Under the pieces are notes generated by a model, which worked only from the letters and a program-made list of their open reading frames with translations, did no database searches and was not told the DNA's origin. The position numbers and the translations under genes are program-made. 64,000 nucleotides of DNA from Mobula hypostoma (lineage: Eukaryota), in assembly GCF_963921235.1 (NCBI RefSeq), contig NC_086108.1, positions 91,576,001 through 91,640,000 of the forward strand, given 5' to 3'. Below are positions 141 through 63,528 of this stretch, piece after piece. The first letter of the stretch is position 1, and each line of letters opens with the position of its first letter.

Positions 141-224
<84 letters not shown>

Positions 225-3700: not shown

Positions 3701-3769
3701 AGTAAGGAGAGAGGGAGGAATGGAATGAGGGATCAGTCAGAAAGGATGTGCAAGGCCTCCCCTAATGTT

Positions 3770-11897: not shown

Positions 11898-12052
11898 AAC
11901 ACAGGAGATTCTGCAGATGCTGGAAATTCTAAGCAACATAAACAAAATGCCGGAAGAACTCAGCAGTCAGGCAGCATCTATGCAGGGAAATAAACAGTGG
12001 ACATTTCAGTCCCCTCCATACATGTTGGGTTCTTCCAGGATTTTGTGTGTGT
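11898..12052. mobile_element. Short Penelope-tail-derived fold-back element (degenerate)
   Basis: TCTGCAGATGCTGGAAAT...AAAATGCCGGAAGAACTCAGCA, then inverted GGGTTCTTCCAGGATTTTGTGTG. Confidence 0.6.
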
Positions 12053-14589: not shown

Positions 14590-14612
14590 ACCTAATCCCT
14601 AATCCTAATCCG

Positions 14613-19964: not shown

Positions 19965-22330
19965 ATAGAAAAAGGAGTAGGCCATCTTGACACTCATCTA
20001 TGCTCTGCCATTCAATAAGGTCATGGTGATCTTTTCTCCCAGTGCCACTTCCCCGTATGCTCCTATGATTACGGGAATCTCTTGATTCCCATCATATATA
20101 AAAAAGTTATCAATCTCTGTCTTGACTATACTGACTGACTGAGCCTCCACAACTACCTTAGGAAGCAAATTTCATGTATTTGCTTCCTTAGGTAAAGAGA
20201 CTAAGCCTGCACAATATTGCTGATACAGTTTCACTTGCACTCTAAATAATTGGAGCCTATCATCTCTATTCTGGTCCTTAATTTTGATTACAGTAAAGGC
20301 CAATATATTGTTTGTTGAGTTTGCTCAATTACTCAATTGCTCATAAAGTCAAATGGCACAGAAACAGCCCTTCAACACATACTGGTAATATGTCACCACA
20401 AAATACTCTGCAGATGCTGGGGCCAAAGCAACACTCACTACACGCTGGAGGAACTCAGCAGGTCGGGCAGCATCCGTGGAAACGATCAGTCAAAATTTCG
20501 TGCCAGAATCCTTCCTCAGGACTGAAGAGGGAAGGGGTTGAATTCCTCTAGCATGTTGTGACCGGTAATATGTCCATGGCAGCTAACAAGTGCCTTTCTA
20601 TGTTAATCCCATTTTCCAGTATTTGGCCAATAGCCTTCTATGCCATGGGGTTTTAGCGTTTGGCAAAATATTTTTTAATTTTCTGAAAATACTCCCTCCA
20701 CTACTCCTTAAAGGAGTAACCACATTTGGTTGAAAAAAAATTTTCTTCAAATGCTCTCTTCATCTCTTTCTCATTACCTTATCTCTTGGTCATAGAAAAC
20801 TTTGCTAAGGGAAAAAGTTCCTCACAGTCTTCTCTATCTGTGCCCTTCATAATTTTATTTACCTCAGTCAAGCTTCTCCTCTCATTCTTTTTCAATCCAA
20901 ATGAAAAAAGAAACAGGTTATCCAGTCTCTCCTCGTGACTGAAATTCTCCACTTCAGGCAAAAATCGCCTCCCTTCCTTGTGAAAAGTAACTTTTTCCAA
21001 TGTTTTGGTGACTAAAACGGCACACAGTACTCCAGCTGTGGTTGAGCTAATGTTTTAAAATATTGTACCATGACCTCCCTTGCTCTTTTAGTCTATATTC
21101 CAACTAATGAAGGCAATACTCTGGATTTCTCCTTTACCACCTTATCTACAATCTGTGCTGTTGCCTTTAGGAATCCTTTGACATGTGCACCAAGATCTTT
21201 ATTGTGCCTGAGTACTTATTATGGATCTATTATTCCCTGGGTATGTCCTAACCTTATTATCCCCCCACAATGTAACATCTCCCTATTTTCATGATTAGCT
21301 TCCTTCTGCCCATCGCACCAATTGATCAATTCCTCTGTAGCCAAATGCTACCTTCAACACTAGCCCCAAGCAATAAAGATTTCCACACCAGTCTTCAAGA
21401 TTTAACACTGGTCAAAAGTTTTCAAATCAAAAAGACACCCCTCAACCATTACCCTTCCTTTCCTCTTACCACATCAATTTCAAATGCAGTTTTCTATGTT
21501 ATCCTGGATTCCGTGGGCTCTTAACTTTCAAATTCCCATGTGGAACATAGTCCAAGTCCTAACAAGCGTGGCCTGTAATACAGAGGGATGGTTGCATTTC
21601 GAGAAAGTGGTCCATAATGATAAGCTAAGTCCTCTGCACCTTTGCCAAGAAGCACAAGCTGTAAAATAATGAATTATGTGTTGATTTATTTACTACTTTT
21701 GCATACAAAATCTGTGAGAGTGTATTTAAACTATATCTCAAAATTTTGTGTCGTGATTTATGAATTCCATAAAGATGAATTTCCATTTCCCAAATGGTTG
21801 TAACACATAGGTATTGAAGTCCGTGTTGGTGACATTGGCAGTGTCACCCCCACTATATTTCATATTGGTCAGGCAGGATCTTCCTTTAATAAAGGTATGC
21901 TGACCCATGGCTCTCTGCTAACCAAGTGCTGATTAATTTTTCTCTCAGAAATTATACAAATGATTTCCCTATCACTGGTGTGAGGTTCACCAGCCTGTAA
22001 TTAACTAGATTTTCACTGCTGTTTCTTGAATAAAGGCACCTGATTGACTGTCCTTCAATAATTTGGCACCTCCTATGGTCTGAGAATATTTGAAAATTTC
22101 TGTCAGAGTGGGTTTTATCCATCCTACTCCTAACTCATAACCTTTCTACTTTTCAACTGAAAATTTGCTCTAACATTTCACTTGTCCCCTTTTGTGTTCT
22201 TCAACTACAATGTCCTCCTTCATTGTGAATACAGATGAGAAATATCACCTTTGTCTTCCAGCCCCATTCACTTCCATTCCGATTTTCAACCCCAATCACC
22301 ATCCCTTGGTTAGCCTTTTAGAGCAAAGAC
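19965..22330 (-). mobile_element. Several old minus-strand CR1 fragments
   Basis: Inverted CR1 3' ends (CATAAGAAATAG...GGAGTAGGCCAT; GAAACAGCCCTTC) and reversed ORF2 motifs (CACAGTACTCCAGCTGTGG; CTGGTGTGAGGTTCACCAGCCTGTAATT). Confidence 0.65.
20395..20560 (-). mobile_element. Short non-autonomous Penelope-tail element with 14-bp TSD
   Basis: TSD AC(T/C)GGTAATATGTC at 20381-20394 and 20561-20574. Body is the Penelope terminal repeat with a degenerate hammerhead plus a short inverted remnant. Confidence 0.7.
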
Positions 22331-28958: not shown

Positions 28959-29744
28959 TAGAAACATAGAAACATAGAAAATAGGTGCAGGAGTAGGCCA
29001 TTCGGCCCTTCGAGCCTGCACCGCCATTTATTATGATCATGGCTGATCATCCAACTCAGAACCCAGCCTTCCCTCCATACCCCCTGACCCCTGTAGCCAC
29101 AAGGGCCATATCTAACTTCCTTTTAAACATAGCTAATGAACTGGCCTCAACAGTTTGCTGTGGCAGAGAATTCCACAGATTCACCACTCTCTGTGTGAAG
29201 AAGTTTTTCCTAATCTCGGTCCTAAAAGTCTTCCCCTCTATCCTCAAACTGTGACCCCTCGTTCTGGACCTCCCCAACATCGGGAACAATCTTCCCGCAT
29301 CTAGCCTGTCCAATCCCTTTAGGATCTTATACGTTTCAATCAGATCCCCCCTCAATCTTCTAAATTCCAACGAGTACAAGCCCAGTTCATCCAGTCTTTC
29401 TTCATATGAAAGTCCTGCCATCCCAGGAATCAATCTGGTGAACCTTCTTTGTACTCCCTCTATGGCAAAGATGTCTTTCCTCAGATTAGGGGACCAAAAC
29501 TGCACACAATACTCCAGGTGTGGTCTCACCAAGGCCTTGTACAACTGCAGTAGTACCTCCCTGCTCCTGTACTCGAATCCTCTCGCTATAAATGCCAGCA
29601 TACCGTTCGCCTTTTTCACCGCCTGCTGTACCTGCATGCCCACTTTCAATGACTGGTGTATAATGACACCCAGGTCTCGTTGCACCTCCCCTTTTCCTAA
29701 TCGGCCACCATTCAGATAATAATCTGTTTTCCTATTTTTGCCAT
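28959..29744 (-). mobile_element. Young 5'-truncated CR1 LINE
   Basis: Uninterrupted ORF (QRDLGV...LVRPHLEYCVQFWSP...TRGHSL...FTQRVVNLWNSLP) with a (TATGTTTC)n tail. Confidence 0.95.
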
Positions 29745-29789: not shown

Positions 29790-31560
29790 TCATTCCATTT
29801 AAGTGGAGCATCCTATAATCTAAATCCTATCTGACCTTAGCAATTGTCTTACATTTGTCTCCCTTTGCATGGACCTCAGTGAGCTCCATGTCCACCATGG
29901 TGCTGAGCTCTTCCTCTGCCACCTCTGTGTCCATGCCCACTTCTTTAGCAAGGATTTCCCACCCAGCAGTGATGACCCCTTCTTCCACCTCCAACCCTCC
30001 TCCTCTTCTCGGACACCTCTCTCTGGTTCACTTCCTGCTCTGGACCTTTTCATTTGTAATTGCCGACGAGACATTGACTTGCTGGACTTCAGCACTCCTC
30101 TCTCCTCTTCAAACTTTAACCCCTCTGAACCCACTGTCCTCGTCTCTATCCGCACCAATCCCGATCTCACCATCAAACCCACAGGCAAAGTGGGAGCTGT
30201 TGTAGTCTGGCAGAATGATCTCTACCTTGCGGAGGCAAGGTGCTAACCCTCAGACACCTCCTCTTACCTACCTCTTGAAAAAGACCCCTTTCAGGCCTAT
30301 TGCCTCCTGCACTATCCCCAACCTCATCAACTCTGGAGATCTCCCATCCACTGTCACCAATCTCGAATTTCCCTTATCCTGGTTCACTCATTTCTAACCA
30401 TTATTGAAGATCCATAAACCTAACTGTCCAGGTTGGTCCATTGTTTCTGCCTGCTCTAGCCCCACTGAACTTGTGGCTGCATACCTCAACTTCATTTTAT
30501 CCCCCTTATTTCAGTCCCTTCCCACCTACATCCACAACACTTCATATGCTCTCGATCTCCTCAACAACTTTCAATTCCCTGACCATGATTACCTCATTTC
30601 CCCCATGGATGTCCAGTTCCTATACACTTCTATCCCCCATCTAGAAGGCCTTAAAGTTTTCCACTTCTTTATTGACAACAGACCCGACCAGTTCCCCTCC
30701 ACTACCATCTTCCTCCATCTAGCAGAACTGGTCCTTACTCTCAACAATTTCTCTTTTGATTCTTCTCACCTTTTCCAAACTTAAGGTGTAGCCATGGGCA
30801 ACCACATGGGCCCCAGCTATGCCTACCTTTTCTTTGAACAGTCCACATTGCAAGCCTTGCATCGTAATGCTTCTCAACTCTTTCTGCACTACATAGCCTC
30901 CTCTACATTGATGAGAACCGACATAAACTGGGGGACCACTCTGTCAGGAACCTTTGCTCTATCCACAAAAACCAGAATTTCCCAGTGGCTAACTATTCAA
31001 TTCCAATCTCCGTTCCCATTCCAACCTGTTGGTCCATTGCCTCCCCTTCAATAAAGATAAGGCCACTCTCAGGTTGGAGGAGCAACACCTTCTATTCTGT
31101 TTGGGTAGCTTCCTACCTGATGGTGAACATTGATTTCTCCAACTTCTGGTAATTTTTCCCTCCTCTTTCCCTCTTCATTTCCAAAATCTGCCCCCCCATT
31201 ACCTCTTCTCCCAACCTGCCTATCACCCCCCACCACCAGTGCCACTCCTCCTTCCCTTTCTCCTATGGTCCACTCTCCTCTCCTATCAGATTCCTTCTTC
31301 TCTCGCCCTGTACCCTTTCCACCATTCACCTCCCAGCTTCTTACTTCATACTCCCTCCCCCACCCACCTGACTTCATCTATCATCTTCTAGCTTGTACTC
31401 ACCACCCCCACCCCCCAGCTTCTCATTCTGGCATTCTTCCTTTCTAGGCCTGAAACATCGACTGTTTATTCTTTTCCATAGATACTGCCTGACCTGCTGA
31501 GGTCCTTCAGCATTTTGTGTGTATTGCTCTGGATTTCCAGCATCTACAAAATCTCTCGTC
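29790..31560 (+). mobile_element. Decayed Penelope-like element (RT and terminal repeat)
   Basis: IKPTGKVGAVVVW, KIHKPNCPGWSIVSACSSPTE, MDVQFLYTSIPH, NNFSF, GVAMGNHMGPSYA motifs with stops and deletions. Tail GCATCTACAAAATCTCTCG. Confidence 0.85.
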
Positions 31561-32189
31561 TTTATTCTACCTTTTCCTACAAATGGTGGTTGGCATAAAC
31601 AAAAAATAGTTTGATCTTACCCAATGACAGTGCATAGGCGTGAGTAGAGTTCATTTCATGTATATTTGTAGATCTTGATGCATTTGGACTATTTGAAATG
31701 GTTCCCAAGATCATCATTGTCTACCTAAAGTAATATTACCTGGTTTATTGACAACATTCTTTGTTGGCAGATATACTTGGATGGAGTCTATTCCTCAGTT
31801 CATTTATAGAATACGGATCCCACCATCATTTTATTGCAGAAACCAAAACTAGACCATCATCCTTTTAGACACATATTCCTATTCATCCTGTGGTAGTGTT
31901 GTTGGAAGGCTCACGTAAAGCATAAATACTGATACAGACTTGCTTTTAAGATGTATATAGTGACTATTTGCTTGTATGATACAAAGTTCATTCAGTATTG
32001 TTTCGACTTCATTTATTCCATTACATTTGATAGATAACGGATGGTTCTGTCATTGAAGTTGTGCAGAAAAGATCTGAAACTATCAGAGAAATGTCACATG
32101 CAGTATATGAATCAACTTAAAGGAATTGCTTTGCATATTAAGTGCATATTTTTAAGCGCAGTGCCAAATTGGAAAGATTAGGTACAGGA

Positions 32190-32600: not shown

Positions 32601-33769
32601 TAAAGCCAGTATGGGTTTTCTTTAAACCATAAGTATAGCAAGAATAAACAGCCAAGTGTCTGAAGCAGCAGTGTAATAGGTATAATGAAAGGTGAAACTA
32701 ATACGGTACGTCACAAACACAAGAGTTTCTGCAGATGCTGGAAATACAGAGCAACACACCATAGGTGTTGAAGGATCTCAGCAGGTCAGGCAGTATCTGT
32801 GAAGAGGAATAAACAGTCAATATTTCGGGCTGTGATCCTTCATCTGCAGACTGCATCTCGAGTGTTTCACAAAGTCTTTGTTTTAAAGATCACTTTAAAA
32901 GATTGAAAAACAGAATATTCCCACAGAAAAGAATAGTCAGATTTGAAACATTATTAACTAAAGAAATTTTCTTGTGGTTTTAAACTATATTCACTATGCA
33001 GAAAGTGAATTTCTAAGCAGTGTTCATAGTGATTCTGATTTTCTGACACAAAAGAGTAACTAATGGAACTTTCCAGTTCAATGTTCTCTCCCATGTTGCA
33101 TTTGTCAAGTCAGCCATTCAAATTTTCTATGTTCTTGACATTTTCCAAATTTAAGATTTTGGTAACTGGGAGATAGAACAAGTAAATTCAAATGTCCAGA
33201 ATTCGAAAATTGAATAGAAAACATTACAGCACAGAATAGCCCTTTCTGTCCACAACATTGTGTGACCTTTTTACCTAATCCAACATTAATCTCACCCTTC
33301 CCTCGCACATAAGCCTCCATTTTACTTTCATTCATGTGTCTATCTGATAGTCTCTTAAATGTTTCTAATGTATCTGCCTGTACCACCATCCCTGGCAGTG
33401 CATTTCACACATTTGTCAGTCTATATACAAAGAACTACCTCCGACATCCCCTATATTTTCCTCCAAGCAACTTAAAAATATGCCCTTATATATTAGCCAT
33501 TGTAGCCCTAGGGAAAATTTGCTGGCTGACCATTCTATCTATGCCTCTTATCATCTCACGCACCTCTATCAAGTCACCTCTCATCCTCCTTCACTCCGAA
33601 GAAAGCACTAACTCGCTCAACTTATCCTCATAGGACACCCTCTCTAATTCAGGCAGCATCCTGATAAATCTCTTCAGCACACTCTTCTAAAGCTTCTATG
33701 TTTCCTCATAATGAGGCAACCAGAAGTAAACACAATACTCTCAGTGTGGTCCAAGCAGAGATTTATAGA

Positions 33770-33964
33770 AACAAGAGAAAATCTGCAGATGCTGGAGATC
33801 CAAGCAACACACACAATATGCTGGAGGAGCTCAGCAGGCCAGGCAGCATCTATGGAAAAGAGTCTTGCTGAAGGGTCTTGGCCTGAAATGTCAACTGTAT
33901 TCTTTTCCATAGATGTTGCCTGGCCTGTTGAGTTCCTCCAGCATTTTGTGTGTGTGTGTGTGTT
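33770..33964. mobile_element. Short palindromic Penelope-tail element with 15-bp TSD
   Basis: TSD GCAGAGATTTA(T/C)AGA at 33755-33769 and 33965-33979. Inverted arms flank a degenerate hammerhead (AGTC-TTGCTGA-AGGGTCTTGGCCT-GAAA-TGTC-AACT). Confidence 0.8.
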
Positions 33965-34276
33965 GCAGAGATTTACAGAGCTACATTACATCAACTAATG
34001 AAGACCAACAATGCCACAACTAATGACGACCAACACACCATGCGCCTTTTTAAGTACCTTATCAAACTAAGTGTCAACGTTGAGGGATCTATGGACATAA
34101 ACCCTCGAGACTCCATACTAAGAATTCTGTCACTAACGTTGTACTCTGCCTTCAAGTTTGACCTTCCTAAGTGCATTACTACACACTTTTCCAGATTGAA
34201 TTCCAACTGCCACTTCATAGCCCAGCTCTGAATCCTATCAATGTCCCATTGCAACCCACGTCAACTTTCTACAATA

Positions 34277-35021
34277 TAGAAACATAGAAACATAGAAACA
34301 TAGAAAATAGGTGCAGGAGTAGGCCATTCGGCCCTTCGAGCCTGCACCGCCATTTATTATGATCATGGCTGATCATCCAACTCAGAACCCAGCCTTCCCT
34401 CCATACCCCCTGACCCCTGTAGCCACAAGGGCCATATCTAACTTCCTTTTAAACATAGCTAATGAACTGGCCTCAACAGTTTGCTGTGGCAGAGAATTCC
34501 ACAGATTCACCACTCTCTGTGTGAAGAAGTTTTTCCTAACCTCGGTCCTAAAAGGCTTCCCCTCTATCCTCAAACTGTGACCCCTCGTTCTAGACCTCCC
34601 CAACATCGGGAACAATCTTCCTGCATCTAGCCTGTCCAATCCCTTTAGGATCTTATACGTTTCAATCAGATCCCCCCTCAATCTTCTAAATTCCAACGAG
34701 TACAAGCCCAGTTCATCCAGTCTTTCTTCATATGAAAGACCTGCCATCCCAGGAATCAATCTGGTGAACCTTCTTTGTACTCCCTCTATGGCAAAGATGT
34801 CTTTCCTCAGATTAGGGGACCAAAACTGCACACAATACTCCAGGTGTGGTCTCACCAAGGCCTTGTACAACTGCAGTAGTACCTCCCTGCTCCTGTACTC
34901 GAATCCTCTCGCTATAAATGCCAGCATACCGTTCGCCTTTTTCACCGCCTGCTGTACCTGCATGCCCACTTTCAATGACTGGTGTATAATGACACCCAGG
35001 TCTCGTTGCACCTCCCCTTTT
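34277..35021 (-). mobile_element. Young 5'-truncated CR1 LINE, near-identical to 28959-29744
   Basis: ORF 34382-35035 almost identical to 29056-29811, with the same (TATGTTTC)n tail. Confidence 0.95.
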
Positions 35022-37090: not shown

Positions 37091-37225
37091 TTAAAAAATC
37101 ATTAATACTGTAGTGTATTAACTGTGTGGCTAAAAGAAAATGCCTGTTCTAGTAGCATAGTGAGATGAAGTGTGTGGCATGAAATTCTTATACTCTCAGC
37201 AAAACGTGCTAACTTATGAGTTGAC

Positions 37226-37882
37226 ACACACAAAATGCTGGAGGAACTCAGCAGGCCTGGCAGCATCTATGGAAAAGAGTACAGTCGACATTTTGGGCCG
37301 AAACCCTTCAGCAGGACTAGAGAAAAAATGCTGAGGAGTAGATTTGAAAGGTGAGGGGAGGGGAGAGAGAAATGTCAGGCTATTAGTGAAACTTGGAGGA
37401 GGAGGGATTGAGCAAAGAGCTAGGAAGTTGATTGGTAAAAGAGACAGAAGGCCATGGAAGAAAGAAAAAGGTGGGGGGAATGGGGAGGAGCACCAGAGGG
37501 AGACGATGGACGGGCAAGGAGATAACATGAGAGAGGGACAAACGGATGGGAATGGTGAAGTGGAGTGGGGGTGGGGAGGCGTGACTGGAAGTTTAAGAAA
37601 TTGGTGTTCATGCCACATGTTGGAGGCTACCCAAACAGAATAAAAGGTGTTGTTCCTCCAATCTAAGTGTAGCCTTATCCCCACAGTGGGGGAGGACATG
37701 GATGGACATATCGGAATGGGAATGGAAAGTGGAATTAAAATGGGTGGCCACTAGGAGATCCTGCTTGTTCTGGCGGATGGAGTGTAGATGCTTGGCGAAG
37801 TGGTCTCCCAATCTACAAGAGGACACACCAGGAGCACCGAACACAGTATACGACCCCAACAGACTCATAGGTGAAATGTCGC
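37226..37882 (-). mobile_element. 5'-truncated Penelope-like element with 13-bp TSD
   Basis: GIY-YIG remnant (LGDHFAKHLHS...ATHFNS...LEEQHL). TSD CTT(A/T)TGAGTTGAC at 37213-37225 and 37883-37895. Degenerate hammerhead at ~37283-37318. Confidence 0.85.
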
Positions 37883-37895
37883 CTTTTGAGTTGAC

Positions 37896-40583: not shown

Positions 40584-41487
40584 GATGTTTCAGGCCGAGA
40601 CCCTTCATTAGGACTAACTGAAGGAAGAGTGAGTAAGAGATTTGAAAGTTGGAGGGGGAGGGGGAGATCCAAAATGATAGGAGAAGACAGGAGGGGGAGG
40701 GATGGAGCCAAGAGCTGGACAGGTGATAGGCAAAAGGGATACGAGAGGATCATGGGACAGGGGGTCCGGGAAGAAAGACAAGCGGGGGGGACCCAGAGGA
40801 TGGGCAAGGACTTTATTCAGAGGGACAGAGGGAGAAAAAGGAGAGTGAGAGAAAGAATGTGTGTATAAAAATAAGTAACAGATGGGGTACGAGGGGGCGG
40901 TGGGGCATTAGCGGAAGTTAGAGAAGTTGATGTTCATGCCATCAGGTTGGAGGCTACCCAGACGGAATATAAGGTGTTGTTCCTCCAACCGGAGTGTGGC
41001 TTCATCTTGACAGTAGAGGAGGCCATGGGTAGACATATCAGAATGGGAATGGGACATGAAATTAAAATGTGTGGCCACTGGGAGATCCTGCTTTTTCTGG
41101 CGGACAGAGCGTAGGTGTTCAGCGAAACAGTCTCCCAGTCTGCGTAGGGTTTCGCCAATAGAAAGAAGGCCGCATCGGGAGCACCGAACACAGTATATCA
41201 CCCTAGCCGATTCACAGGTGAAGTGTTGCGTCACCTGGAAGGACTGTCTGGGGCCCTGAATAGTGGTGAGGGAGGAAGTGTAAGGGCATGTGCAGCACTT
41301 GTTCTGCTTACAAGGATAAGTGCCGGGAGGGAGATCGGTGGGAAGGGACGGAGGGGAATGAATGGACAAGGGAGTCGCGTAAGGAGCGATCCCTGTGGAA
41401 AGCAGAAAGGTGGGGGGGGGGGAAGATGTGCTTGTTGGTAGGATTCCCGTTGGAGGTGGCGGAAGTTACGGAGAATTATACGTTAGA
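40584..41487 (-). mobile_element. Penelope-like element, inverted left arm (GIY-YIG + terminal repeat)
   Basis: ORF 40908-41369 GIY-YIG domain. Inverted homology to ~42200-43095. Confidence 0.9.
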
Positions 41488-43200
41488 TTCCAGACCTAAC
41501 CAGCTCCCCTCTATCACCACTCTCCTCTGTCTAGCGGAATTGGTCCTTACTTTTAACAATTTCTCCTTTGGCTCCTCCCACTTCCTCCAAACTAAAGGTG
41601 TAGCCATGGGCACCCGTATGGGTCCCAGCTATGCCTGCCTTTTTGTTGACTTCATGGAACAATCCATGTTCCAAGCCTATACTGGTATCTGTCCCTCACT
41701 TTTCCTTCGCTACAACGACAACTGCATTGGCGCTGCTTCCTGCACGTATGCTGAGCTTGTTGACTTCATTAACTTTGCCTCCAACTTTCACCCTGCCCTC
41801 AAGTTTACCTGGTCCATTTCCGACACCTCCCTCTCCTTTCTTGATCTTTCTGTCTCTATCCCTGGAGACAGCTTATCTACTGATGTCTACTATAAGCCTA
41901 TGGACTCTCACAGCTTCCTGGACTATTCCTCTCCTCACCCTGTCTCTTGCAAAAATGCCATCCCCTTCTCGCAATCCCTCCGTCTCCGCCGCATCTGCTC
42001 TCAGGATGAGGCTTTTCATTCCAGGACGAAGGAGATGTCCTGCTTTTTTAGAGAAAGGGGCTTCCCTTCCTCCACTATCAACTCTGCCCTCAAATGCATC
42101 TCTCCCATTTTACACACATCTGCTCTCACCCCATCCTCCCGCCACCCCACTAGGAATAGGGTTCCCCTTGTCCTCACCTACCACCCCACCAGCCTCTGGG
42201 TCCAACATATGATTCTCCATAACTTCCGCCACCTCCAATGGGATCCCACCACTAAGCACATCTTTCCCGCCCCCACTTTCTGCTTTCCGCAGGGATTGCT
42301 CCCTACGTGACTCCCTTGTCCATTCGTTCCCCCCCAATCCCTTCCCTCCTGGCACTTATCCGTGTAAGCGGAACAAGTGTTACACATGCCCTTACACTTC
42401 CTCCCTCACCACCATTCAGGGCTCCAGACATTCCTTCAAGATGAGGCGACACTTCACCTGTGAGTCAGCTGGGATGATATACTGTGTCCGGTGCTCCCGA
42501 TGTGGCCTTCTATACATTGGCGAAACCCGACGCAGGCTGGGAGACTGTTTCGCTGAACACCTACACTCTGTCTGTCAGAGAAAGCAGGATCTCCCAGTGG
42601 CCACACATTTTATTTCCACGTCCCGTTCCCATTCTGATATGTCTATCCACAGCCTCCTCTACTGTCAAGATGAAGCCACACTCAGGTTGGAGGAACAACA
42701 CCTTATATTCCACCTGGATAGCCTCCAACCTGATGGCATGAACATTGACTTCTCTAACTTTCATTAATGCCCCACCTCCCCTTCGTACCCCATCTCTTAT
42801 TTATTTTTTTTTCTCTCTCTTTTTTTCTCCCTCTGTCCCTCTCACTATAACTCCTTGCCCATCCTCTGGGCTCCCCACTGCTTTCTTTCTCCCTAGGCCT
42901 CCCATCCCATGATCCTCTCCTTTCTCCAGCCTCGTATCCCCCTTTGCCAATCAACTTTCCAGTTCTTAGCTCCATCCCCCTCCCCTCCCCCTCCTGTCTT
43001 CTCCTATCATTTCAGATCTCCCCCTCCCCCCTCTCAAATCTCTTACCATCTCTTCATTCAGTTAGTCCTGACAAAGGGTCTCGGCCCGAAACGTTGTCTG
43101 TACCTCTTCCTATAGATGCTGCCTGGCCTGCTGCGTTCACCAGCATTTTTTGTGTGTGTGTTGCTTGAATTTCCAGCATCTGCAGATTTCCTTGTGTTTG
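41488..43200 (+). mobile_element. Penelope-like element, right arm (RT + GIY-YIG + terminal repeat with tail)
   Basis: NNFSFGSSHFLQTKGVAMGTRMGPSYACLF, FLRYNDN (degenerate YxDD), FLDL, TDVYYKP; ORF 42441-42767 MIYCVRCSRCGLLYIGET. Confidence 0.92.
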
Positions 43201-47247: not shown

Positions 47248-47796
47248 AAAGTTACTTCAACACTTGCAGGCTGCCCAGTACAATCCTCACTGATTTGATT
47301 TGATGCAAATGACACATTTCACTGAATGTTTTGATGTACATATGACATGTAGAGCTGATCTTATCTTCCATCCTGATCTAAAATAAACCCCAGCCCACTT
47401 TCCAGAGAGAACCAGCAATTCCTTTCCTGTCCCCCAGAGTTCATTTGTTCATAGCTCCCCTACAGGTGGAAACATCGTAGTATCTACCCCGTCAAGGCCT
47501 CTTAGGATCTTTTATGTTTAAATAATATCACTCCTCCATTCTTCTAAACTTCAAAGAATGCAAACCCAAACTGTCCAGCCATACTTAATAGGTCAACAAT
47601 AACAAACCAGGATCTTGCTTGGTGAGGATGAGACCAGAGGATGGGCAAGTGTTCGGTGCCATCTGCCTGTGTTTGACCAGTCTTGCTCTCCCTCTCACTT
47701 GCTGCTGACAGAGTAAAGTGCAGGAATCTTGTAATCCACGTTACAAGTCAGCTGAGGACTCTTTTTGCGGGACCTTGAGCTTCATGTTGCATGTGT

Positions 47797-48013
47797 CACA
47801 CGTCAAAGTTGCTGGTGAACGCAGCAGGCCAGGCAGCATCTCTAGGAAGAGGCACAGTCGACGTTTCAGGCTGAGACCCTTCGTTAGTCCTGACGAAGGG
47901 TCTCAGCCCGAAATGTCGACTGTACCTCTTCCTAGAGATGCTGCCTGGCCTGCTACGTTCACCAGCACTTTGATGTGTGTTGCTTGGATTTCCAGCATCT
48001 GTAGAATTCCTCA
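47797..48013 (+). mobile_element. 217-bp palindromic Penelope-tail element with hammerhead motif and perfect 13-bp TSD
   Basis: TSD ATGTTGCATGTGT at 47784-47796 and 48014-48026. ~88-bp inverted arms plus a one-sided tail. Confidence 0.88.
47886..47921 (+). ncRNA. Minimal hammerhead ribozyme motif
   Basis: AGUC-CUGACGA-AGGGUCUCAGCCC-GAAA-UG-UC-GACU: intact core, stem I AGUC/GACU. Confidence 0.65.
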
Positions 48014-50054
48014 ATGTTGCATGTGTTCCTTGATTCTGGTTACTCTTTTATTTTGCTGTTCTTGAGCAGTTTGATTGGGGCGATCGATGCAGACTGAGGC
48101 GGTTTGGTGAAGAATGACCCTGTGACCTACAGCGGACTAGTGGCATGGCACTGAACTAAACTAAGCAGAATACCCCTGGTTTGATTTTTATATTCTATAT
48201 TTGGTTCGCTTGCTTTTTGCCATTTGCACAATTTGTACTTTTTTCCTGCGTTGGGTGTTTGATACTTTTTTGAATGAGTTCCATCGTGTTTCCTTGTTTC
48301 ATGGCTGCCTATGGGAAGACAAATCTCAGAATTGTCTTCTGTATACATACTTCGATAATAAATGCATTTTGAACTTAAATGAATCTTTAAATTAAATATT
48401 GAACACATCAAACAGGCTGTTAAAAATGCACAAAAAGCTTACACAGTCAGTTTTGCATGTGGTGTATTCTCTCTGCAAGTCAATGTGGAAGATGTTTTTT
48501 GACTTTTGTGCAGTGTATCATATTCTTCTGTGTTTGGAGGTTTTCTAAGTATCCCCAGATTACTGTTTCTGACTTTACTTTCTAAAGTTGCCAAGTTTTT
48601 GATGCAAATCTTTCTTTGATAGATATTTAGCTGCAGTATTGAGCTTTGTTGATGTTTGATTTCAAATTTGAAGATCTTCTTTTCACATATAGCCGCAAAA
48701 ATCTGTTCCATGGAAGTAGGCACAGACTTAAAATCTTCTGCTTCAGAAGGCATTACATTGACTTGGTGAACCCAGCCATTTCAAGTAGATTTAAGCTTTT
48801 CAGTCACATGATGAACAACAAAATAAAATTGAATTATATTATTAGCCTCAGGCTCCATGCAGTCTTTTCCTTTGTAGTCAAGTGAATTATTTTTGGAGTG
48901 GTGAGTTTTAGGAATTCTTTTCATCTTCTACCATGAACTGGTTTGAAGACCTGATTTTTCAGAAGAAATTAGTAATTGAAGTAACCATAAAACAGAAGCA
49001 ACTGAACACTAACAATAACTTGAACACACTAAGGACATTTAGAAATAGTGTTCAATGGGTGTGATGTATGTTAAGGCTTGACATGGTGGAGATGGGGAGA
49101 GTGAATTAACAATGTGCTGGGCAGTAATCAGAACAAAAGTTGAGAGAATAGATTTTGTGTATGCTTAGAAGTAGTATGAACATTTCCCCCCTCTCACAGC
49201 AAATAAAAATTGTTACCAATATTGACCAACCCAAAGCCCAGGCAAAACATCAAAGCGTTAGGATGGAAAGAGAACCCATGCCCAAGGACCCAAGGAATCA
49301 ACTCATGGAGGGCCAACATCTTTCAGGCAAACACGATCGTTTTCTTTTTGGAACCGTGAATTTTTAACAATATATTTTTATGCTACACTTTTATTAACAA
49401 CTTCCTGTTGTTACCAAACTGCATTAGGCAATAAGGAAAGAAAAAATATTTCCAAAAATTTCATTGGTTCATTTTGTGTGAATTGCTCATTTCAGATGTC
49501 TCAGTTTGAAAAAAAATGGATTTGATTCATTAGTCTTCTGCTTTTGCTCCTTGCTATTAGTCTTTCTCACTCATCTAGTAAATGGAAGTAATTTCTGATT
49601 ACACTTAGTCAATAAGACTCTTCAATCAATCAGTAATTAACAACAGACAGCAGTTTTACCACTGATTTTTTCTTTAGAGTAGAATATGAGGTGTAATGTC
49701 TAAGATGAATATCACATTTTGTGTTTTGATTACTCGGTTAAATAACCAAGGTCAAAATGGTCTTAATTCTATTTTGTATTCATTTTGAAATAAGTCAGCA
49801 GAAAGCACAAATCTCAGGGTCTTAAAAAAAGTTGACTGACTTTGTTAATTAATAATTTTATTTTATGATCAGTTATGAAACATAGTAAATGGGAGGAAAA
49901 TTGTGAGGCAGAGAGGAAAATATTAAAGGCTATCTGTGTTACAAAATAGTTGTTTGAAACAAGCAAGCAAAAAAAATCCGTCTAATTTTAAGAACAAAGT
50001 GGTTAGCAATGTTTAGTTCTACATTTATTTATCCTGTTCAGTTAGAAATGGAGC

Positions 50055-52128
50055 TCAGACAAGGTTTATATTGTGATACAAAAAGTATCATGTCTTTATC
50101 AGACAAGGTTTATATTGTGATACAAAAAGTATCATGTCTTTATCAGACAAGGTTTATATTGTGATACAAAAAGTATCATGTCTTTATCAGTCTGGTTTAT
50201 ATTGTGATACAAAAAGTATCATGTCTTTATCAGTCTGGTTTATATTGTGATACAAAAAGTATCATGTCTTTATCAGACAAGGTTTATATTGTGATACAAG
50301 AAGTATCCTGTCTTTATCAGACAAGGTTTATATTGTGATACAAGAAGTATCATGTCTTTATCAGACAAGGTTTATATTGTGATACAAGAAGTATCATGTC
50401 TTTATCAGACAAGGTTTATATTGTGATACAAGAAGTATCATGTCTTTATCAGACAAGGTTTATATTGTGATACAAGAAGTATCATGTCTTTATCAGACAA
50501 GGTTTATATTGTGATACGAAAAGTATCATGTCTTTATCAGACAAGGTTTATATTGTGATACGAAAAGTATCCTGTCTTTATCAGACAAGGTTTATATTGT
50601 GATACGAAAAGTATCATGTCTTTATCAGACAAGGTTTATATTGTGATACGAAAAGTATCATGTCTTTATCAGACAAGGTTTATATTGTGATACGAAAAGT
50701 ATCATGTCTTTATCAGTCTGGTTTATATTGTGATACAAAAAGTATCATGTCTTTATCAGACAAGGTTTATATTGTGATACAAAAAGTATCATGTCTTTAT
50801 CAGACAAGGTTTATATTGTGATACAAAAAGTATCATGTCTTTATCAGTCTGGTTTATATTGTGATACAAGAAGTATCATGTCTTTATCAGACAAGGTTTA
50901 TATTGTGATACAAAAAGTATCATGTCTTTATCAGACAAGGTTTATATTGTGATACAAAAAGTATCTTGTCTTTATCAGACAAGGTTTATATTGTGATACA
51001 AAAAGTATCATGTCTTTATCAGACAAGGTTTATATTGTGATACAAAAAGTATCATGTCTTTATCAGACAAGGTTTATATTGTGATACAAAAAGTATCATG
51101 TCTTTATCAGTCTGGTTTATATTGTGATACAAAAAGTATCATGTCTTTATCAGACAAGGTTTATATTGTGATACAAAAAGTATCATGTCTTTATCAGACA
51201 AGGTTTATATTGTGATACAAAAAGTATCATGTCTTTATCAGTCTGGTTTATATTGTGATACAAGAAGTATCATGTCTTTATCAGACAAGGTTTATATTGT
51301 GATACAAAAAGTATCATGTCTTTATCAGACAAGGTTTATATTGTGATACAAAAAGTATCTTGTCTTTATCAGACAAGGTTTATATTGTGATACAAAAAGT
51401 ATCATGTCTTTATCAGACAAGGTTTATATTGTGATACAAAAAGTATCATGTCTTTATCAGACAAGGTTTATATTGTGATACAAAAAGTATCATGTCTTTA
51501 TCAGTCTGGTTTATATTGTGATACAAGAAGTATCATGTCTTTATCAGACAAGGTTTATATTGTGATACAAGAAGTATCATGTCTTTATCAGACAAGGTTT
51601 ATATTGTGATACAAAAAGTATCATGTCTTTATCAGACAAGGTTTATATTGTGATACAAAAAGTATCATGTCTTTATCAGACAAGGTTTATATTGTGATAC
51701 AAAAAATATCATGTCTTTATCAGACAAGGTTTATATTGTGATACAAAAAGTATCACTTCTTTATCAGACAAGGTTTATATTGTGATACAAAAAGTATCAC
51801 GTCTTTATCAGACAAGGTTTATATTGTGATACAAAAAATATCATGTCTTTATCAGACAAGGTTTATATTGTGATACAAAAAATATCACGTCTTTATCAGA
51901 CAAGGTTTATATTGTGATACAAAAAGTATCATGTCTTTATCAGACAAGGTTTATATTGTGATACAAAAAGTATCACGTCTTTATCAGACAAGGTTTATAT
52001 TGTGATACAAAAAGTATCACGTCTTTATCAGACAAGGTTTATATTGTGATACAAAAAATATCATGTCTTTATCAGACAAGGTTTATATTGTGATACGAAA
52101 AGTATCATGTCTTTATCAGTCTGGTTTA
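50055..52128. repeat. Tandem satellite, ~47 copies of a 44-bp unit (TCAGACAAGGTTTATATTGTGATACAAAAAGTATCATGTCTTTA)
   Basis: Direct head-to-tail repeats with few variants (43-bp TCAGTCTGG variant; AAGAA/GAAAA loop variants) and no spacers. Confidence 0.98.
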
Positions 52129-54769
52129 AGATAGCACTGGTGAAGCACAGCAATGACTTGCTGGCAACAAACAAAACAATAAATTACTGTATTAATCACA
52201 TTTTTTCTTGGAAACGATCGCTGCAACCAATAGCCTGTGACTTCCCTTTCGGAGTTGAGCTTTTGAACTGCCTGTACGACCTGGTACTTTTGTGGTATGA
52301 ATTGAAGTCTCGAAGATGCAGGATGATTGCAGTGTGGTGGGTAAAGGGCTGAATTGAAGCCGTGGGACCCTGGCCCAAAAGCGGTGAATGAGCCAATGTT
52401 CAGCCATTGCTGGAGCTGATTTGGAGATGATTCGATGTGACAGAACTAAGACGAGGCAAGTGGAGGTAAGGCAAAGTTGAATCGGTGTTGCCTGGGCCCA
52501 AGAAGGAAGAGTGACTGCTCTTTGGCCAAAGGTTGGGTACGGGCCAAATTGAGGAGGCAGGGCCTGGGCCTGGGAGTGTATTGAAGCAGCAAAGATCTGG
52601 TCCAAGAGGAACAACCCAAGGTTTGACTGATTTAAGCGCTGGGCCAGATGGAGAAGGTCAAAGTGTTGGGGTCAAAGGAGAGGGATGGGCCTGTGTTCAG
52701 CTCGCTGCTCCTCAAGGGTGACTCATTTCTCTGCCAAACTGAGGCTATGTCTCCTAGATCAGCTGCAGTGATGGCTGGCTTCATGACTATGGACTCACTT
52801 CCAGTCTGAATGTTATTTGCTTACTTTTATTGTTTGCATGATTTAATTTTTCTGCACATTGGGTGTTTGACAGTCTTCTTTTTCAATGGGTTCTATTGGG
52901 TTGCAGCATCCGCAGATTTTCTCCTGTTTCTATTGACTCTCTGTTTTGCTCTACCACGATGTGCAAGTCAGAATGCAAATCTAACTTATACTTTTCATAT
53001 CTGACAAAGCTTAAGTACTTCTTGGGCATCCATAGGAATTAAGTGAGTATACAATCCGATCCAACCCAACCCACTGCTCATTATCTTAATTCTACTTCCT
53101 CAGCGGTCCCAAAAGATTAATAATCTAATTCCATTCTAAGCGTGGGACCCCAGAGCTTTTCACGGATGGGGCTGGAGATGCCAAACAAGGCAAGTGATGT
53201 GCATTTCTTCCACTAGTGTTGCAGGGTGCATGGATGAGGTAATACAATCCTGAAGGCCATTTCTTCACTTTGAGACAATAATGGTGACAATCCTAGACTG
53301 AATAATTGTGGTGAAATGGGATCAAGGACAGGATCACAATAGTGGACACATTCTGAATGTTCTTTATAGCACGTGTTCACTGCTTCTCTGTACTTTATAA
53401 ATTCAACTGTTTCTTTGGCTCGCAGTGGAGTGGAGCCTTGGGTATTTGAACTGGAGAGGGGCTGAAAACACGTCACTGATATCAGTGAATTGCCTCACCT
53501 TCGGCAGCCATTATTAGTTCTTTAGGAGAAGGGATTTCTCCTGCATCTTTACCTTCAAATGTAGATTCAGATTTATTTATTACAGGTACTTTGAAACATA
53601 CAGTGATATTTACATGAACAATCAACACAGCCAAGGATGTGCTGGGGCAGCCCTTAAGTCTCACCACACAGTCCGGTGCTGATATGGCACGCCTACAATG
53701 CTCGGCAGAACATTGAGCTTGACTATAGTGCTGTTACTTTTCACTGGTTGAATGGTGGAATTTCCACAGCAGGAAATGCTTATGGTTAATTAGATCCTCG
53801 ACCTCTTGTTTTTTTTTCTCATCAGACCAGTGCTGATCTACCTTGGTATAGAAGCCAAAAACATCTTCACAGGTATCAATTATGGCAGGCTGCAGGCCAT
53901 CCCATGCACCATGTATACCCCACAATTCTAGTTGCTGGGAGATGATAGATTATTTATGTGATGCTTTTGAAAAAGACCTGTCTTTGTGTGCTCTTTGAAA
54001 CCTTTGACATGGATCTTCCTGTGATAATGTTTTTACTGGTGCTGGTTTTTGGGGACATGTTGTGGAGATAAAAAGTGGATGAGGCAGCAGTCAACTGAGG
54101 AGTCATTGTTACCTGTCATGAAACAAGCAGTGTTCATACCTTTGTAGCTGCTGGCTTGGATGGTTGGGCCTTTGTTGGGGTTAAAATCTATAGAGAACAT
54201 TGACTTCAGCAACTATCCTTCAGATCTGAATATGGATTGTAGATTAAATTTAAAATGCAGCTCAGAACAGTAAAATGCAACACAGATAGACTAGGAAGCA
54301 GACACTTCACCGATTGTCTAGATATGCATGAATCTAATCGATATCCTATTGCATGAATACAACAATAATTAACACTTATTTTGGGTGTGTTGATGGGAAG
54401 ACCCAGGAATTTGAACTGTTACATATAAATCAAATGAAGCATTATGAGGGTATTGTAACTATAGAAATTGTCCTTTTACTTTTGTTCTTTAAACCTGGAT
54501 CTGGGCTGTACCCTCCAAATATCCGGACCTGCATCTTGGTTTTTTTGCACTACCTTACTTTCCATTTTTCTATTTTCTATTTATGATTTATAATTTAAAT
54601 TTTTAATATTTACTATCGATTTGTAATTCAGGGAGCGGGAAGCGCAGAATCAAATATTGCTATGGTGATTGTACATTCTAGTATCAATTGTTTGGCAACA
54701 ATAAAGTATTGTTGCCATTTTTATATATGGGCTGTAATGTTGGACTGGTGAGTCTCTCTCTGTCTCTGT

Positions 54770-56603: not shown

Positions 56604-57666
56604 TCGTCTCCGGTATATGGAGGGCACCCTTAAAAAGTGGAATAAACGTAATGCAGGAATGGTTTGACAGCTGGTTTGTCCTTGTTACAGCTGATCACTT
56701 ACCTCATAAAGTTCAAAACATTTCTTGTTTTTTCCTCAGAACAGAAAACAATTTAAATTGGCAGTGCATTTGTTTACAGCATGCATTTAATGTGAAAAGG
56801 AGCATGTTTAAAGGAGACGTGTATGGGAAGTTTTTTAAAAATACACAGGGAGTGGCAGGTGCCTGGAATGGCTGAAGGGATATAGTTTAAGTTAGCATCA
56901 CGCTTGGCGCGGACATAGTGGGCCAAAGAGCCTATTAATATGCTGTACCTTCTACGTTCAACACTCTATGTAAGTAGTTCAATGGGAAAACTTGACGCAT
57001 TTTTATTTTATAAATTATATTTGGGGTACGATTTTTTAAAATTTTAGTTCTGTTCAGGATGTTATTTTTCTTGTTGTCATTGTTTGATAAGATCATGTAT
57101 TTTTGATGACTAAAATCAAACTCCAGGCAAATACATCAACTTTCAATTTCTATCATAAAAGGCAATTATATCGGAAATGAAAACAATAATACCCATACAT
57201 CTGCAGTCATTCATCGCTGCCTGTATTTTCACTATTAATGTTCCCAAGTTATTCAGTCATATCATTGATCAGAATATTTTATTACATATCCACAAAGAAA
57301 TGTGATTGGTCAATATCTGCATTTGGAAAGCTGCATTCTTTAAAGCAATATATGGCTTGACATTATAAAATACGTTGCCAATGTAGTGTTTAATATGTGG
57401 AAAAAAATAGAAAATGCCTTTTCCAACTAGATCCTTGGGAGGTGTTTTCTTTTAATACAAATTAAAGCTTTACAAAAAAACATCAGGCATTCCTTATGCA
57501 TAAATATATCTGGGGAAGATTTTAGCTCATATTTCTTGTCCTGAATATTTTATTTTTTAGCTGTTGAGGTGAAGTGTGGATGCTGTTTACATTTGTGTGA
57601 ATTCTCTTAAGCAACTTAATGTTTTCAGATATAGAATGCAGAGTGTTAAAGATGTACTTCTTTGAC

Positions 57667-57876
57667 AATACACACAAAATGCTGGAGGAACTCAGGAGGT
57701 CAGACAGAATCTGTGGGAAAGAGTTAACAGTCGAAGTTTCGGGTCTAGACCCTTCTCAGTTCTGAAGGATCTCGGCCTGAAACATCGACTATTTACTTTT
57801 TTCCATAGGTGCAACCTGACTTACTGAATTCCTCTAGCATTTGGATTTCCAGCATCTGCAGATTTTCTCATTTTTG
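57667..57876. mobile_element. Degenerate palindromic Penelope-tail element
   Basis: CACACAAAATGCTGGAGGAACTCAG...GTCGAAGTTTCGGG / GGCCTGAAACATCGACT...GAATTCCTCTAGCAT plus tail GCATCTGCAGATTTTCTC. Confidence 0.65.
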
Positions 57877-60272: not shown

Positions 60273-60724
60273 AATTACCTTTCATATTTTAGTTTGTGAT
60301 AAGGATATTCCTTTAGTAAATTGGGAGACTGCTTAGTTGAACATGTCTGCTCCACCCGCCAAAAGTAGAACTTCCCAGTGGCCAAATATTTTAATTCTGA
60401 TTCTCATTCCTGTTCTGACATATTGGTCCATGGCCTCATGTGCCAAGATGAGACCACCAGGTTGGAGGAGCAACACCCTATATTCTGTCTGTGAAGTCTC
60501 CAACCTGATGGCATGAATATCAATTTCTCATTCTGTTAAAAAAATACCTTCCTGACTCTTTACTTTTGGCTCCTCACCTGGCTATCACTTTCCCCTGGGA
60601 TCTCCTGCTTCCCTTTCCCCTATGGTCCACTCTCCCCTCCTATCAGATTTCTTTATCTCCAGCCCTTGACCTTTCCCACTCACCTGGCCTCACCTGTCAC
60701 CTTCCAGCTAACATCCTTCCTCTC

Positions 60725-61181
60725 TGTAACTGCGCCGGTCCAATGAAATAATGGCCACACAACATACAGATGTCCTTGAAGATTTATTTTTATTTTTCTC
60801 TCTTTCTCTTTCTTCAGTAGACACCGTGAAAACTACAAGAAAATAGAAGTCATAAAAGGTTTGAAACATACATCTCTCAGTCTTTTAAAGTCTCTCAAGC
60901 TAGTGTCCACCAATAAACAGGCCCAAACACGTTAGCACATCAGAAGTGTGCTGAAATCAAATAAATCACTAAAAATGTATCACACTATTCATATAAAGGC
61001 ACCTCAACAACATTATATAAAACAAATTTTTAAAAAAAAGCAATTACCGTGTGCGCCTCTTGGACCACATGCTGAATGAGGTTATTTTAGGGCCATGTGT
61101 CTTTCTCTACTTCCATGTTGGTTCTGACCCATAATACCACAGTCATGCCTTTATTGAACTCTGGTCATGTGACCCATTACA
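60725..61181 (-). mobile_element. Probable solo LTR interrupting an old Penelope 3' fragment (~60345-60724 and ~61290-61450)
   Basis: TGTAA...TTACA termini, flanks CTCTC / CTCTA, reverse AATAAA near 60783. Penelope GIY-YIG and terminal-repeat remnants on either side. Confidence 0.5.
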
Positions 61182-63528
61182 CTCTACATTAAATAAAACC
61201 TTACATAAAATATTTTAAGGTGATAAATTAATCATGAATTTATGACAAAAACATATAAGCTAAACATCTCAATGAACCATGTCCCTGAAACAGTTACTCT
61301 CTCGCTCCACCTTTTTATTCTGGTGTCTTTCCCATTTCTTCTTCAAGGAAGGTCTCAGCCCAAAATGACATTTCCCTTGATGGAGCCTGACCTGTTGAGT
61401 TCTTCCGGCATTTTGTGTGTGTTTCTTTGGATTTCCAACATCTTCAGACCTTATCATGTTTATAATTTTTTGTGTGTTTAAATCATGAAGTTTTCACCTC
61501 TCATATACTAACTTGTGATAAAGATATTCCTTTAGTGTTTCCTAGCTCACGCTTCTAATTATTACCGAACTACTATCGCTAGGAATAGTCAGTAGTATTA
61601 CAGGAAAACAGTTAATTGGCTAAGTGTCAGAAAAGTAAAAATAAAAGCATGTTTATACATTAGAACAGAAAATAAGCTTGTGTCACATGAATAACATGTT
61701 CAATTTAACACTTTCTCCAGTTAGAATAAAATCTTGACTAACACTGTAGAAATGAATGCAACGCAGCAATTTAATCATTCACTTTTAAATATCATGCTTA
61801 CTGCATAACTTGCAACATTTTATTTATTTATTCATTTATTTATTGAGATACAGCTTGGAACAGACCCTTCCAGCCCTTCAAGCTGCGCCGTCCAGTAATC
61901 ACCCTAGCCTAATCATAGGACAACTTACAATGACAAATTGACATGCCATAATGTTGTACAAAAGTGTACTTCTCTGTCAGAAGGGAAACTGCAACTCCAT
62001 TCCTTTATGTTGCCGTCATATGCACTAAGAGAGCTATCATTCACATGACACAAATCTTAAAGTACTACTATCCCAATAATAAAAGTGACACTTGTGTTTC
62101 TTTCTAATTCCCTCACATCCTTAATCAATTTTCTTCACCGTCTGTAGTATGTGTTATGCTTAATGCCTTGTGTGCAATGGGATTTTGCTGCTGGAGGGTC
62201 TCCCTATCAGCACTGGTTTAATAATTTTTGGTAATGAAAGAGCTTGAAACTAAGTTATTCTCCGTATTCAACTCAATAGTCTTTTTGAAACTGATTCCAA
62301 AGGTAAATAAATTGGTTATTTATTTCACTGCTATTTGGCAATAAATTGCAAAGTAACTGCCACATTTATCTGCAGGTCATATGTAAATACATTTCAGTAC
62401 AATTTGGTGCATGTTTGTACTCTAGAATATCCAGGCATATGTGATAGCTTTGTTTAAAGTATTTATTTTACCATCATCAGCTGTGATGAAGCTTCATATC
62501 ATTCCCATATAATGATGTTTTTCATTGATGGGAATATTGATTTGTTTAAATACTCAAATATTTCTAAATTAAAACAATATGAAAAGTTTATGCCTCAGTT
62601 CAAACACTGCAAGAACATTTCAGTGAATGGATATCCCACACAGACAACATTTAAGAAGCTTAACACCATCCAAGACGAAGCACTACTTGATCAGTATGAT
62701 ATCCTGGTCCTAAATATTCACTTGTCCATTAGGTCTTACTGATTACCATTTTCTTTGTTTTTTCCCCTTTACTTTTTATGAACTTATAAACCATTTTCCA
62801 CTTCCATTGATTTTACTTGCCCATATTTTTACATGCATTTCTTTGCTTTCCTAATTTCTCCTTTAGTTTCAGACCTGCAAATCCTAAATTTTACAAGTAT
62901 TCTACTGTGTTGATCTCAGGTTATCAGACATAAGCTTCCTTATTCTACACTCTAGTCATCCAAAGGAATCTAGGTTCCTTGAAGGGCCAGGAACACCGAA
63001 GAAATGTCACTTTCCCCAAACAGCAAGACTGATCAACACCTCCACCCACAAACCCACCCCTCCAAACCCCTACCACCACTACTTTATCATTTCCTGTCAG
63101 AGTCAACTTACATACAGACACTCCTGTGCCTAGCATCACTTTATGAACATAAAATCAACCTATGTATATGAACTATGTATTTGAATTTCTATCACCAAGT
63201 TTCTGCCTTCTATTCAAGTGTTAGTTTTCTCCCTTCTGAATCGATCCTCAGCTCCCCACCAGACTGCGAAGCTATTTTTACTAGCAGCACACACAACCTT
63301 TCCTGAGGGCACGGAGAATGCGTCTGTATAAGGCCAGGACCTATTTATCTTGTAAAGATCCAACCTTATCTAGAACTGGTCTCAATGTCCTGGGAAACTA
63401 AACCTCCCCTCCAACCCAACATTCAGGAATATTATTATATCTCTATATTCACAGGCTGCTGGCATTATATTGAATCTGGAATCACTACCTTGGAGACCAC
63501 ACTTTCATTTCATTCCTAACTCCTTAAA

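Follow-up and report, generated by a model that had tools for sequence, protein, structure and literature searches.

A 217-bp palindromic Penelope-like insertion in Mobula hypostoma, probably a stub-sized by-product of a Neptune-type element

Introduction

Penelope-like elements (PLEs) leave insertions of a characteristic shape. In those described in PMC3846280, the inverted pLTR is shorter than the direct one, a 31-bp tail stands on one side, the junctions are palindromic and the TSDs measure 8–10 bp, while PMC8557442 gives an inverted 5'-truncated copy with a one-sided tail of 30–40 bp as typical of PLEs. Fold-back self-priming has been proposed for these elements (PMC3846280). In the experiments reported in PMC11167929, the Poseidon protein of the anole cuts and extends both target strands in vitro, reverse transcription is initiated internally, at a pair of sites on either side of the tail, and cleavage by the hammerhead is dispensable. 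The minimal hammerheads surveyed in PMC4209133 include pairs 100–700 bp apart on opposite strands; most are single truncated remnants, and their activity is low even as dimers. Non-LTR retrozymes, as characterized in PMC7229834 and 10.64898/2026.07.22.740005, are head-to-tail tandems that give circular RNA. Among the titles returned by our literature search, which covered few subscription papers, none was about miniature PLEs of palindromic form making up a family in sharks or rays.

Here, we describe a short insertion at 47797–48013 of a 64,000-nt stretch of Mobula hypostoma DNA (GCF_963921235.1, NC_086108.1, positions 91,576,001 to 91,640,000 of the forward strand), which is the whole stretch analysed and is termed the window. 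Our reading is that the insertion is probably a stub-sized, head-to-head PLE insertion, made by the protein of a Neptune-type PLE as a by-product of the full-length element. As an individual event it is most likely a one-off that was dead on arrival.

Anatomy of the insertion

The insertion spans 217 bp and its parts are as follows.

47784–47796, plus strand: left TSD, 13 bp, 13/13 identical to 48014–48026
47797–47887, minus strand: inverted arm, a pLTR segment without tail; hammerhead core broken, stem I absent
47878–47899, unstranded: junction, centred at 47888–47889 on an imperfect hairpin
47884–47979, plus strand: forward arm, a pLTR segment that begins a few nt 5' of hammerhead stem I
47886–47921, plus strand: minimal type I hammerhead, one of the two matches to the minimal-hammerhead descriptor on both strands of the window
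47980–48013, plus strand: one-sided tail, 34 nt, without a mirror copy; the standard PLE extension of 30–40 bp
48014–48026, plus strand: right TSD, 13/13 identical to 47784–47796

This anatomy had been predicted from the letters in most respects. The two inverted Penelope terminal repeats joined at the hammerhead are borne out by arms that match in 84 of 91 columns (six mismatches, one gap) around a central minimal hammerhead; the perfect 13-bp TSD and the one-sided tail are as claimed, and among 2000 pairs of random positions none had an exact repeat longer than 9 nt. Long coding copies in the window likewise back the Penelope origin, and the descriptor match backs the hammerhead motif.

The forward arm is 88–89% identical to the 3' ends of two long copies (13213–13348 and 43061–43192), and the inverted arm stops at the short terminus, which is rich in GT and lies at about −39 to −41 counted from the end of the element. 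The imperfect hairpin at the junction is already present at the same place in the long parent copies. Folded as a whole, the element forms a hairpin of −175.6 kcal/mol (z −22), as good as which none of 200 shuffles folded. The properties by which fragments of EN+ PLEs are recognized are all present, namely pLTR homology, a tail of 30–40 bp at one end, and an inverted 5'-truncated copy with a TSD. All of the sequence is pLTR, and neither an ORF nor a second direct pLTR lies between the arms. Flank-by-flank BLAST against the window gave no paralogue spanning the insertion point, that is, no empty site. In organism B, one contig joins the tail to the same right flank, its tail side being just 26 letters long, under the 31-letter rule, and a hint only.

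The hammerhead and its fold

A descriptor built from the features given in PMC4209133 was scanned over both strands of the window and found two motifs, at 47886 (plus) and 13339 (minus). The 47886 motif has the core, a 4-bp stem I, a bulged A, G10.1–C11.1, stem II and GAAA, and helix III is absent; its cleavage site lies 3' of 47917. The minus strand fails the same test, in agreement with the predicted broken core (CUAACGA, no stem I). The plus-strand core had been called intact, which goes too far: positions 15.2/16.2 have decayed to UG, against the palindromic CG that is needed for dimer pairing and is seen in the 13339 motif and in most of the public-run contig depth, so that the 47886 core is one change short of intact. 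At position 47914, C is the majority letter, with 78% of depth in run X1. The original prediction had also proposed a search with hammerhead models; over the whole window Rfam returned no hammerhead family, just two unrelated matches at E≤5. An identity with mir-3926 in Rfam was rejected at 39 bits against a cut-off of 82, the match merely reflecting the hairpin.

The energy penalty for imposing the hammerhead fold is 47.3 kcal/mol for the entire 217-bp element, compared with 2.3 kcal/mol for the forward arm alone and 9.1 kcal/mol for the 3' 220 nt of copy 13207. In a plus-strand transcript, the complementary arm comes before the hammerhead arm. Since the predicted hairpin buries the hammerhead, the complementary arm is transcribed first and the minus-strand core is broken, a mobile unit of ribozyme plus hairpin would, judging from folding, be self-defeating. 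The hammerhead is probably a passenger within the pLTR, inactive in this element according to the fold models. Both arms pass through the cleavage site, which implies that they were copied from uncleaved RNA.

These properties bear on two classes of mobile DNA that the element resembles. A non-LTR retrozyme spread through self-cleaved circular RNA would account for the hammerhead motif and for a size within range, and retrozymes are described as derived from pLTRs (10.64898/2026.07.22.740005); a MITE moved by a DNA transposase would similarly show inverted repeats and a TSD. By definition, however, a retrozyme is a head-to-tail tandem in which two or more consecutive units carry a hammerhead, whereas here one near-intact motif faces a broken one on the opposite strand, and TRF shows no such tandem in the window, only three unrelated arrays. 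A MITE is at odds with the asymmetric ends (34-nt tail) and with a sequence that is all pLTR. An origin by either route is very improbable.

Just 5' of stem I, a pyrimidine tract followed by AG resembles a splice acceptor in four UTR-bearing copies (13340–13365, 43040–43066, 37320–37345 and 20520–20540), and several short copies begin within a few nt of it. Inspection by eye showed no clear donor. In Drosophila virilis, an intron end is described as coinciding with hammerhead helix I (PMC4209133).

The parent element

Five longer, coding Penelope-like copies, which the original prediction had overlooked, lie in the window, at 13207–14589, 30679–31563, 37224–37884, 40584–43198 and 60309–61462, and all five share terminal sequence with the short copies. 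Details of three of them are as follows.

13193–14612, minus strand: 5'-truncated coding PLE copy, 1.4 kb, with full minimal hammerhead, tail and 14-bp TSD (one mismatch); subfamily of the 47797 element
37213–37895, minus strand: coding PLE copy, 0.66 kb, stopping at the short terminus without tail; 13-bp TSD (one mismatch)
40584–43198: head-to-head pair of coding PLE fragments, 2.6 kb, 40584–41494 on the minus strand and 41487–43198 on the plus strand with tail

Element ends fall at two recurrent termini. In copy 13207 the terminus includes the tail (TSD 13/14); in copy 37224 it lies 38 nt earlier and the tail is missing (TSD 12/13). Of 300 random pairs, three reached the score of the weaker of these two TSDs. 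At its 5' end, copy 13207 is separated from its TSD by nine extra target-like letters (14590–14598). The head-to-head pair belongs to the same subfamily as the 47797 element and has a weak TSD; it is the long version of the same architecture, of which the 47797 element keeps almost nothing between the ends.

The copy at 13193–14612 encodes the C-terminal part of an RT and a GIY-YIG domain in an open frame of 320 aa (13636–14598). Against Pfam, GIY-YIG was found at E 1.9e-4, just under the cut-off. The frame has 112 longer relatives, most with RVT_1 on record; among three rescanned for domains, all carry RVT_1 and two carry GIY-YIG. The highest identities over long stretches, 62–64%, are to bamboo-shark proteins, which points to a host among the cartilaginous fishes. 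The RT–EN linker contains a C-x4-CxxC motif whose cysteines (C187, C192, C195) are invariant in 7/7 aligned rows, and CX2-5CxxC in this linker is given as the Neptune motif in PMC8557442. By this linker motif in its sequence, the parent qualifies as a Neptune-type PLE; as Nematis also has a linker motif, this alone is insufficient to fix the clade.

Short copies, junctions and ancestry

Further short insertions of the family are scattered over the window.

11898–12053, minus strand: old short insertion, forward arm from −116 plus a short inverted scrap (34 columns); TSD not found
20381–20574, minus strand: short insertion, a pLTR-and-tail copy with some UTR and a 23-nt inverted scrap; 14-bp TSD (one mismatch)
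32716–32844, minus strand: old single-arm pLTR-and-tail stub beginning at hammerhead stem I; TSD not found
33755–33979, minus strand: second short palindromic insertion, of another subfamily; 15-bp TSD (one mismatch), junction −93/−133
57666–57874, plus strand: old palindromic insertion joined at the hammerhead core, of another subfamily; TSD not found

These copies had been proposed as independent relatives of one kind, a proposal that holds in part. The TSDs claimed at 33770–33964 (15 bp) and 20395–20560 (14 bp) exist but are imperfect, at 14/15 and 13/14. The 33770–33964 element is a palindrome, but the hammerhead is absent from its tail-bearing arm, so its junction lies elsewhere; 20395–20560 is a single minus-strand copy with about 20 nt of UTR and the inverted scrap, not a palindrome joined at the hammerhead. 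As for the copies listed as degenerate, that at 57667 is palindromic, whereas at 11898 the forward arm is accompanied by an inverted scrap, the copy at 32715 consists of one arm, and at 55790 a lone arm matches weakly (67% over 84 columns, E 0.005); for these four, no TSD rose above the random background. Over all 11 insertions, the TSD search was without result in six (57666, 11898, 32716, 40584, 52896 and 55790), with scores of 2–7, in the random range. A tail-only piece at 52896–52928 (34 columns, 85% match), within another repeat and with a doubtful 10-bp TSD, is possibly the shortest insertion of the series. In the window the 47797 element stands at the short end of a length continuum of about 0.13 to 2.6 kb.

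Each of the five short two-armed copies has a junction of its own. Counted from the element end, and approximate because arm ends were taken from BLAST and pairwise alignment, these lie at −142/−133 (47797), −93/−133 (33770), about −150/−60 (20395), −125/−129 (57666) and −116/−67 (11898). All five inverted arms end at about −36 to −44. The junctions are nonetheless not random: the hammerhead core is the joining point in the 47797 and 57666 elements alike, and one arm of 33770 and one of 32716 end there as well.

The arms of the 47797 element are 84–90% identical to long copies 13207 and 43198, as against 66–71% to the palindromes 33770 and 57666, and the 33770 element is 89–95% identical to long copy 37224. 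As the 47797 and 33770 elements are each nearest to a different long copy, palindromes arose separately in at least two subfamilies. In a 14-row tree, drawn from this one 64-kb window, the sole supported node (100/99) unites both 47797 arms with long copies 13207 and 43198; the other 10 of 11 nodes are unsupported.

The original prediction held that such units may be a retrozyme- or SINE-like parasite of the Penelope protein, with ribozyme plus hairpin as the minimal mobile unit. The differing junctions, the nesting with long coding copies and the buried hammerhead speak against this, and mixed junctions with nesting among autonomous copies, the pattern named beforehand as counting against it, is what the short copies of the window show. 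Its alternative, extreme 5'-truncation and inversion products, fits better, the long coding copies having the same ends and TSD size.

Two other histories for a by-product or its descendants can be weighed against these copies. The first is that the insertion was once a longer head-to-head PLE copy, from which a microhomology-mediated deletion later removed the middle while sparing the two ends with their TSD. The subfamily does include a 2.6-kb head-to-head copy at a distance of 4.6 kb, PMC3846280 describes deletions of this type in Penelope copies, and a short microhomology is present at the asymmetric junction of the 33770 element; yet deletion leaves unexplained both the single-arm stub that begins at the same place (32716) and the exact centring on the parent hairpin, and we regard it as improbable. 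The second is a self-propagating, SINE-like subfamily, in which a palindromic master is read-through transcribed and re-inserted by the PLE protein starting on both arms. Some letters common to both 47797 arms do differ from long copy 13207, but one such shared letter, at 47935, is found commonly across the genome (in X1, 78% of depth). None of the four other short two-armed copies in the window has the same length, junction and subfamily as the 47797 element, and that 57666 shares the junction in another subfamily points to a hot spot. We think this history unlikely, and contig depth bears on it further.

Junction depth in public runs

Contigs of four of 24 listed public runs were aligned to 47860–48500; the run search listed no RNA holder, and one of the four aligned runs may be RNA. 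Family abundance is high: 43,028 contigs of one run align to a 641-nt stretch that includes the 47797 element and a flanking repeat. Immediately left of the junction, the bin has 1.13, 0.57, 0.24 and 0.30% of the depth of the next bin (4/4 runs), and 168, 97, 76 and 6 contigs overrun the ends of the aligned stretch, nearly all presumably on the junction side; 406, 479, 272 and 39 contigs have two possible placements. Even so, the three larger runs reach about 3200, 1200 and 500 times single-copy depth to the left of the junction, although depth gives no copy number. Together, the overrunning contigs and this depth suggest that the junction may recur many times. It may do so as a hot spot or as a small subfamily, both of which are compatible with the depth data.

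The joints themselves are varied. Loose ends at 47883–47887 mostly continue into pyrimidine-rich UTR with low agreement (among 24 of 1652 rows). Among 15 of 210 joints, two are strand switches inside the pLTR, at different places, and among 12 of 72 joint rows all differ, the deepest having about nine times single-copy depth. In run X7, joints lead from three positions in the tail region (47995, 48001 and 48007) to where the hammerhead begins (47883–47887), one at about eight times single-copy depth; if head-to-tail, they would represent retrozyme-like short tandems in a related organism.

For the SINE-like history, then, the overrunning contigs and the depth left of the junction leave room for a junction that recurs in three organisms; non-autonomous PLE derivatives are known, as with MRC1 (PMC8557442), and cis-acting pLTRs are stated to suffice in trans (PMC3846280). 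Against this, the junction accounts for at most about 1% of neighbouring depth, and the anole RNA in PMC11167929 needed sequence to +172 of the ORF, past the RT start at +111–118, which the stub may lack if the requirement extends across clades. That a palindromic miniature PLE subfamily of cartilaginous fishes is being re-mobilized, with an RT start for each arm and a hairpin that keeps the hammerhead off, is accordingly a doubtful proposition. Were it true, it would mean spread without tandem structure or ribozyme activity, a MITE-like form among retroelements.

Repeat setting of the window

The window also holds repeats of other kinds. An AT-rich satellite with a 44-bp unit occupies 50055–52119 (47.1 copies, 96% matches, TRF). 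Two 737-bp LINE-like fragments (28959–29695 and 34285–35021), putatively of CR1 type, are 99.3% identical and have minus-strand open frames, with older relatives at about 16935, 44691 and 56022. Positions 1–4000 form a purine-only, G-rich low-complexity tract with a GC content of 71–79% and a GC skew of up to 0.99, which may be partly an assembly artefact.

A possible route to the insertion

Production of the 47797 element as a by-product could proceed in four steps. First, the RT/GIY-YIG protein would cut both target strands about 13 nt apart and thereby generate the TSD; the TSD is observed, and cutting of two strands is extrapolated from anole Poseidon. Second, cDNA synthesis would start at two internal sites on the RNA, at the tail end and about 38 nt inside, giving one arm with the tail and one without. 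Both termini are seen as TSD-flanked ends of long copies, and their assignment as RT starts follows the anole work (PMC11167929). Third, synthesis would halt after about 90–135 nt, near the 5' edge of the hammerhead, where the end points are observed. Candidate causes are a hairpin, a splice acceptor or transcript start, and stalling at the pyrimidine tract. The hairpin, an 'anti-ribozyme' fold upstream of the core, is borderline against shuffles: for five copies, 4.6–19% of 2000 shuffles fold equally well, and in a control on one copy three of ten other UTR windows also fold that well.

Fourth, the ends would be joined head-to-head on the small hairpin that pre-exists in the parent; the position of the junction is observed, and its route may be either annealing of two cDNAs or fold-back self-priming of one. 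We lean slightly towards the two cDNAs, because two primers directly explain the fixed end of the inverted arm, and take self-priming as a serious contender. The weak point of the scheme, which proceeds by analogy, would be that the in vitro data come from a Poseidon element and the parent here appears to be Neptune-type.

The cleavage site of the hammerhead coincides exactly with two element ends, namely the inverted arm at 40584 and an X7 contig joint from 47917 to 47883 (head-to-tail). These ends hint that cleaved RNA is sometimes used (n = 2), with later deletion as an alternative for 40584. The last letters there, 40584–40591, resemble a weak TSD, and the target may thus have paired with the end of the cleaved RNA.

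On the most likely reading, the 47797 element is ordinary PLE debris, which repeat libraries could wrongly list as a MITE, a microRNA hairpin or a new SINE. It is of value because it records a mechanism, that by which PLEs build inverted ends and a tail. Tabulated across a whole genome, arm ends and junctions could discriminate between two-primer and fold-back synthesis, account for the halt at the 5' edge of the hammerhead and show whether cleaved RNA is ever used in vivo.

Comparison with known systems

The closest likeness is to the insertions of EN+ PLEs (Arkhipova et al. 2013, PMC3846280; Craig et al. 2021, PMC8557442), which, as those papers describe them, are likewise head-to-head, with a tailless inverted arm, a tail of 30–40 bp, a palindromic junction and a TSD. 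The differences are that here the whole insertion is 217 bp, with no ORF or second direct pLTR between the arms, and that TSDs in the window are 13–15 bp, compared with 8–10 bp in the rotifer examples of PMC3846280. With Poseidon_Ac of Anolis carolinensis, as reported by Frangieh et al. (2024, PMC11167929), the locus shares a pLTR hammerhead, two ends separated by the tail and cDNA that runs through an uncleaved hammerhead; it differs in a parent with the Neptune-type C-x4-CxxC linker and in being known from sequence alone.

The motif itself resembles the minimal hammerheads of metazoan PLEs in the description of Cervera and de la Pena (2014, PMC4209133), with a short stem I, a nucleotide bulged between 9 and 10.1, G10.1–C11.1 and no helix III, whereas the 47797 copy has UG at 15.2/16.2 and its two motifs are not spaced apart but overlap one another at the junction. 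Like the non-LTR retrozymes presented by Cervera and de la Pena (2020, PMC7229834) and Li et al. (2026, 10.64898/2026.07.22.740005), the element is small, non-coding, hammerhead-bearing and related to pLTRs; unlike them, it consists of one head-to-head unit, in the hairpin of which the ribozyme is buried. An inverted arm, a one-sided tail and a palindromic junction are thus already published PLE anatomy, of which the 47797 element is most likely the shortest form.
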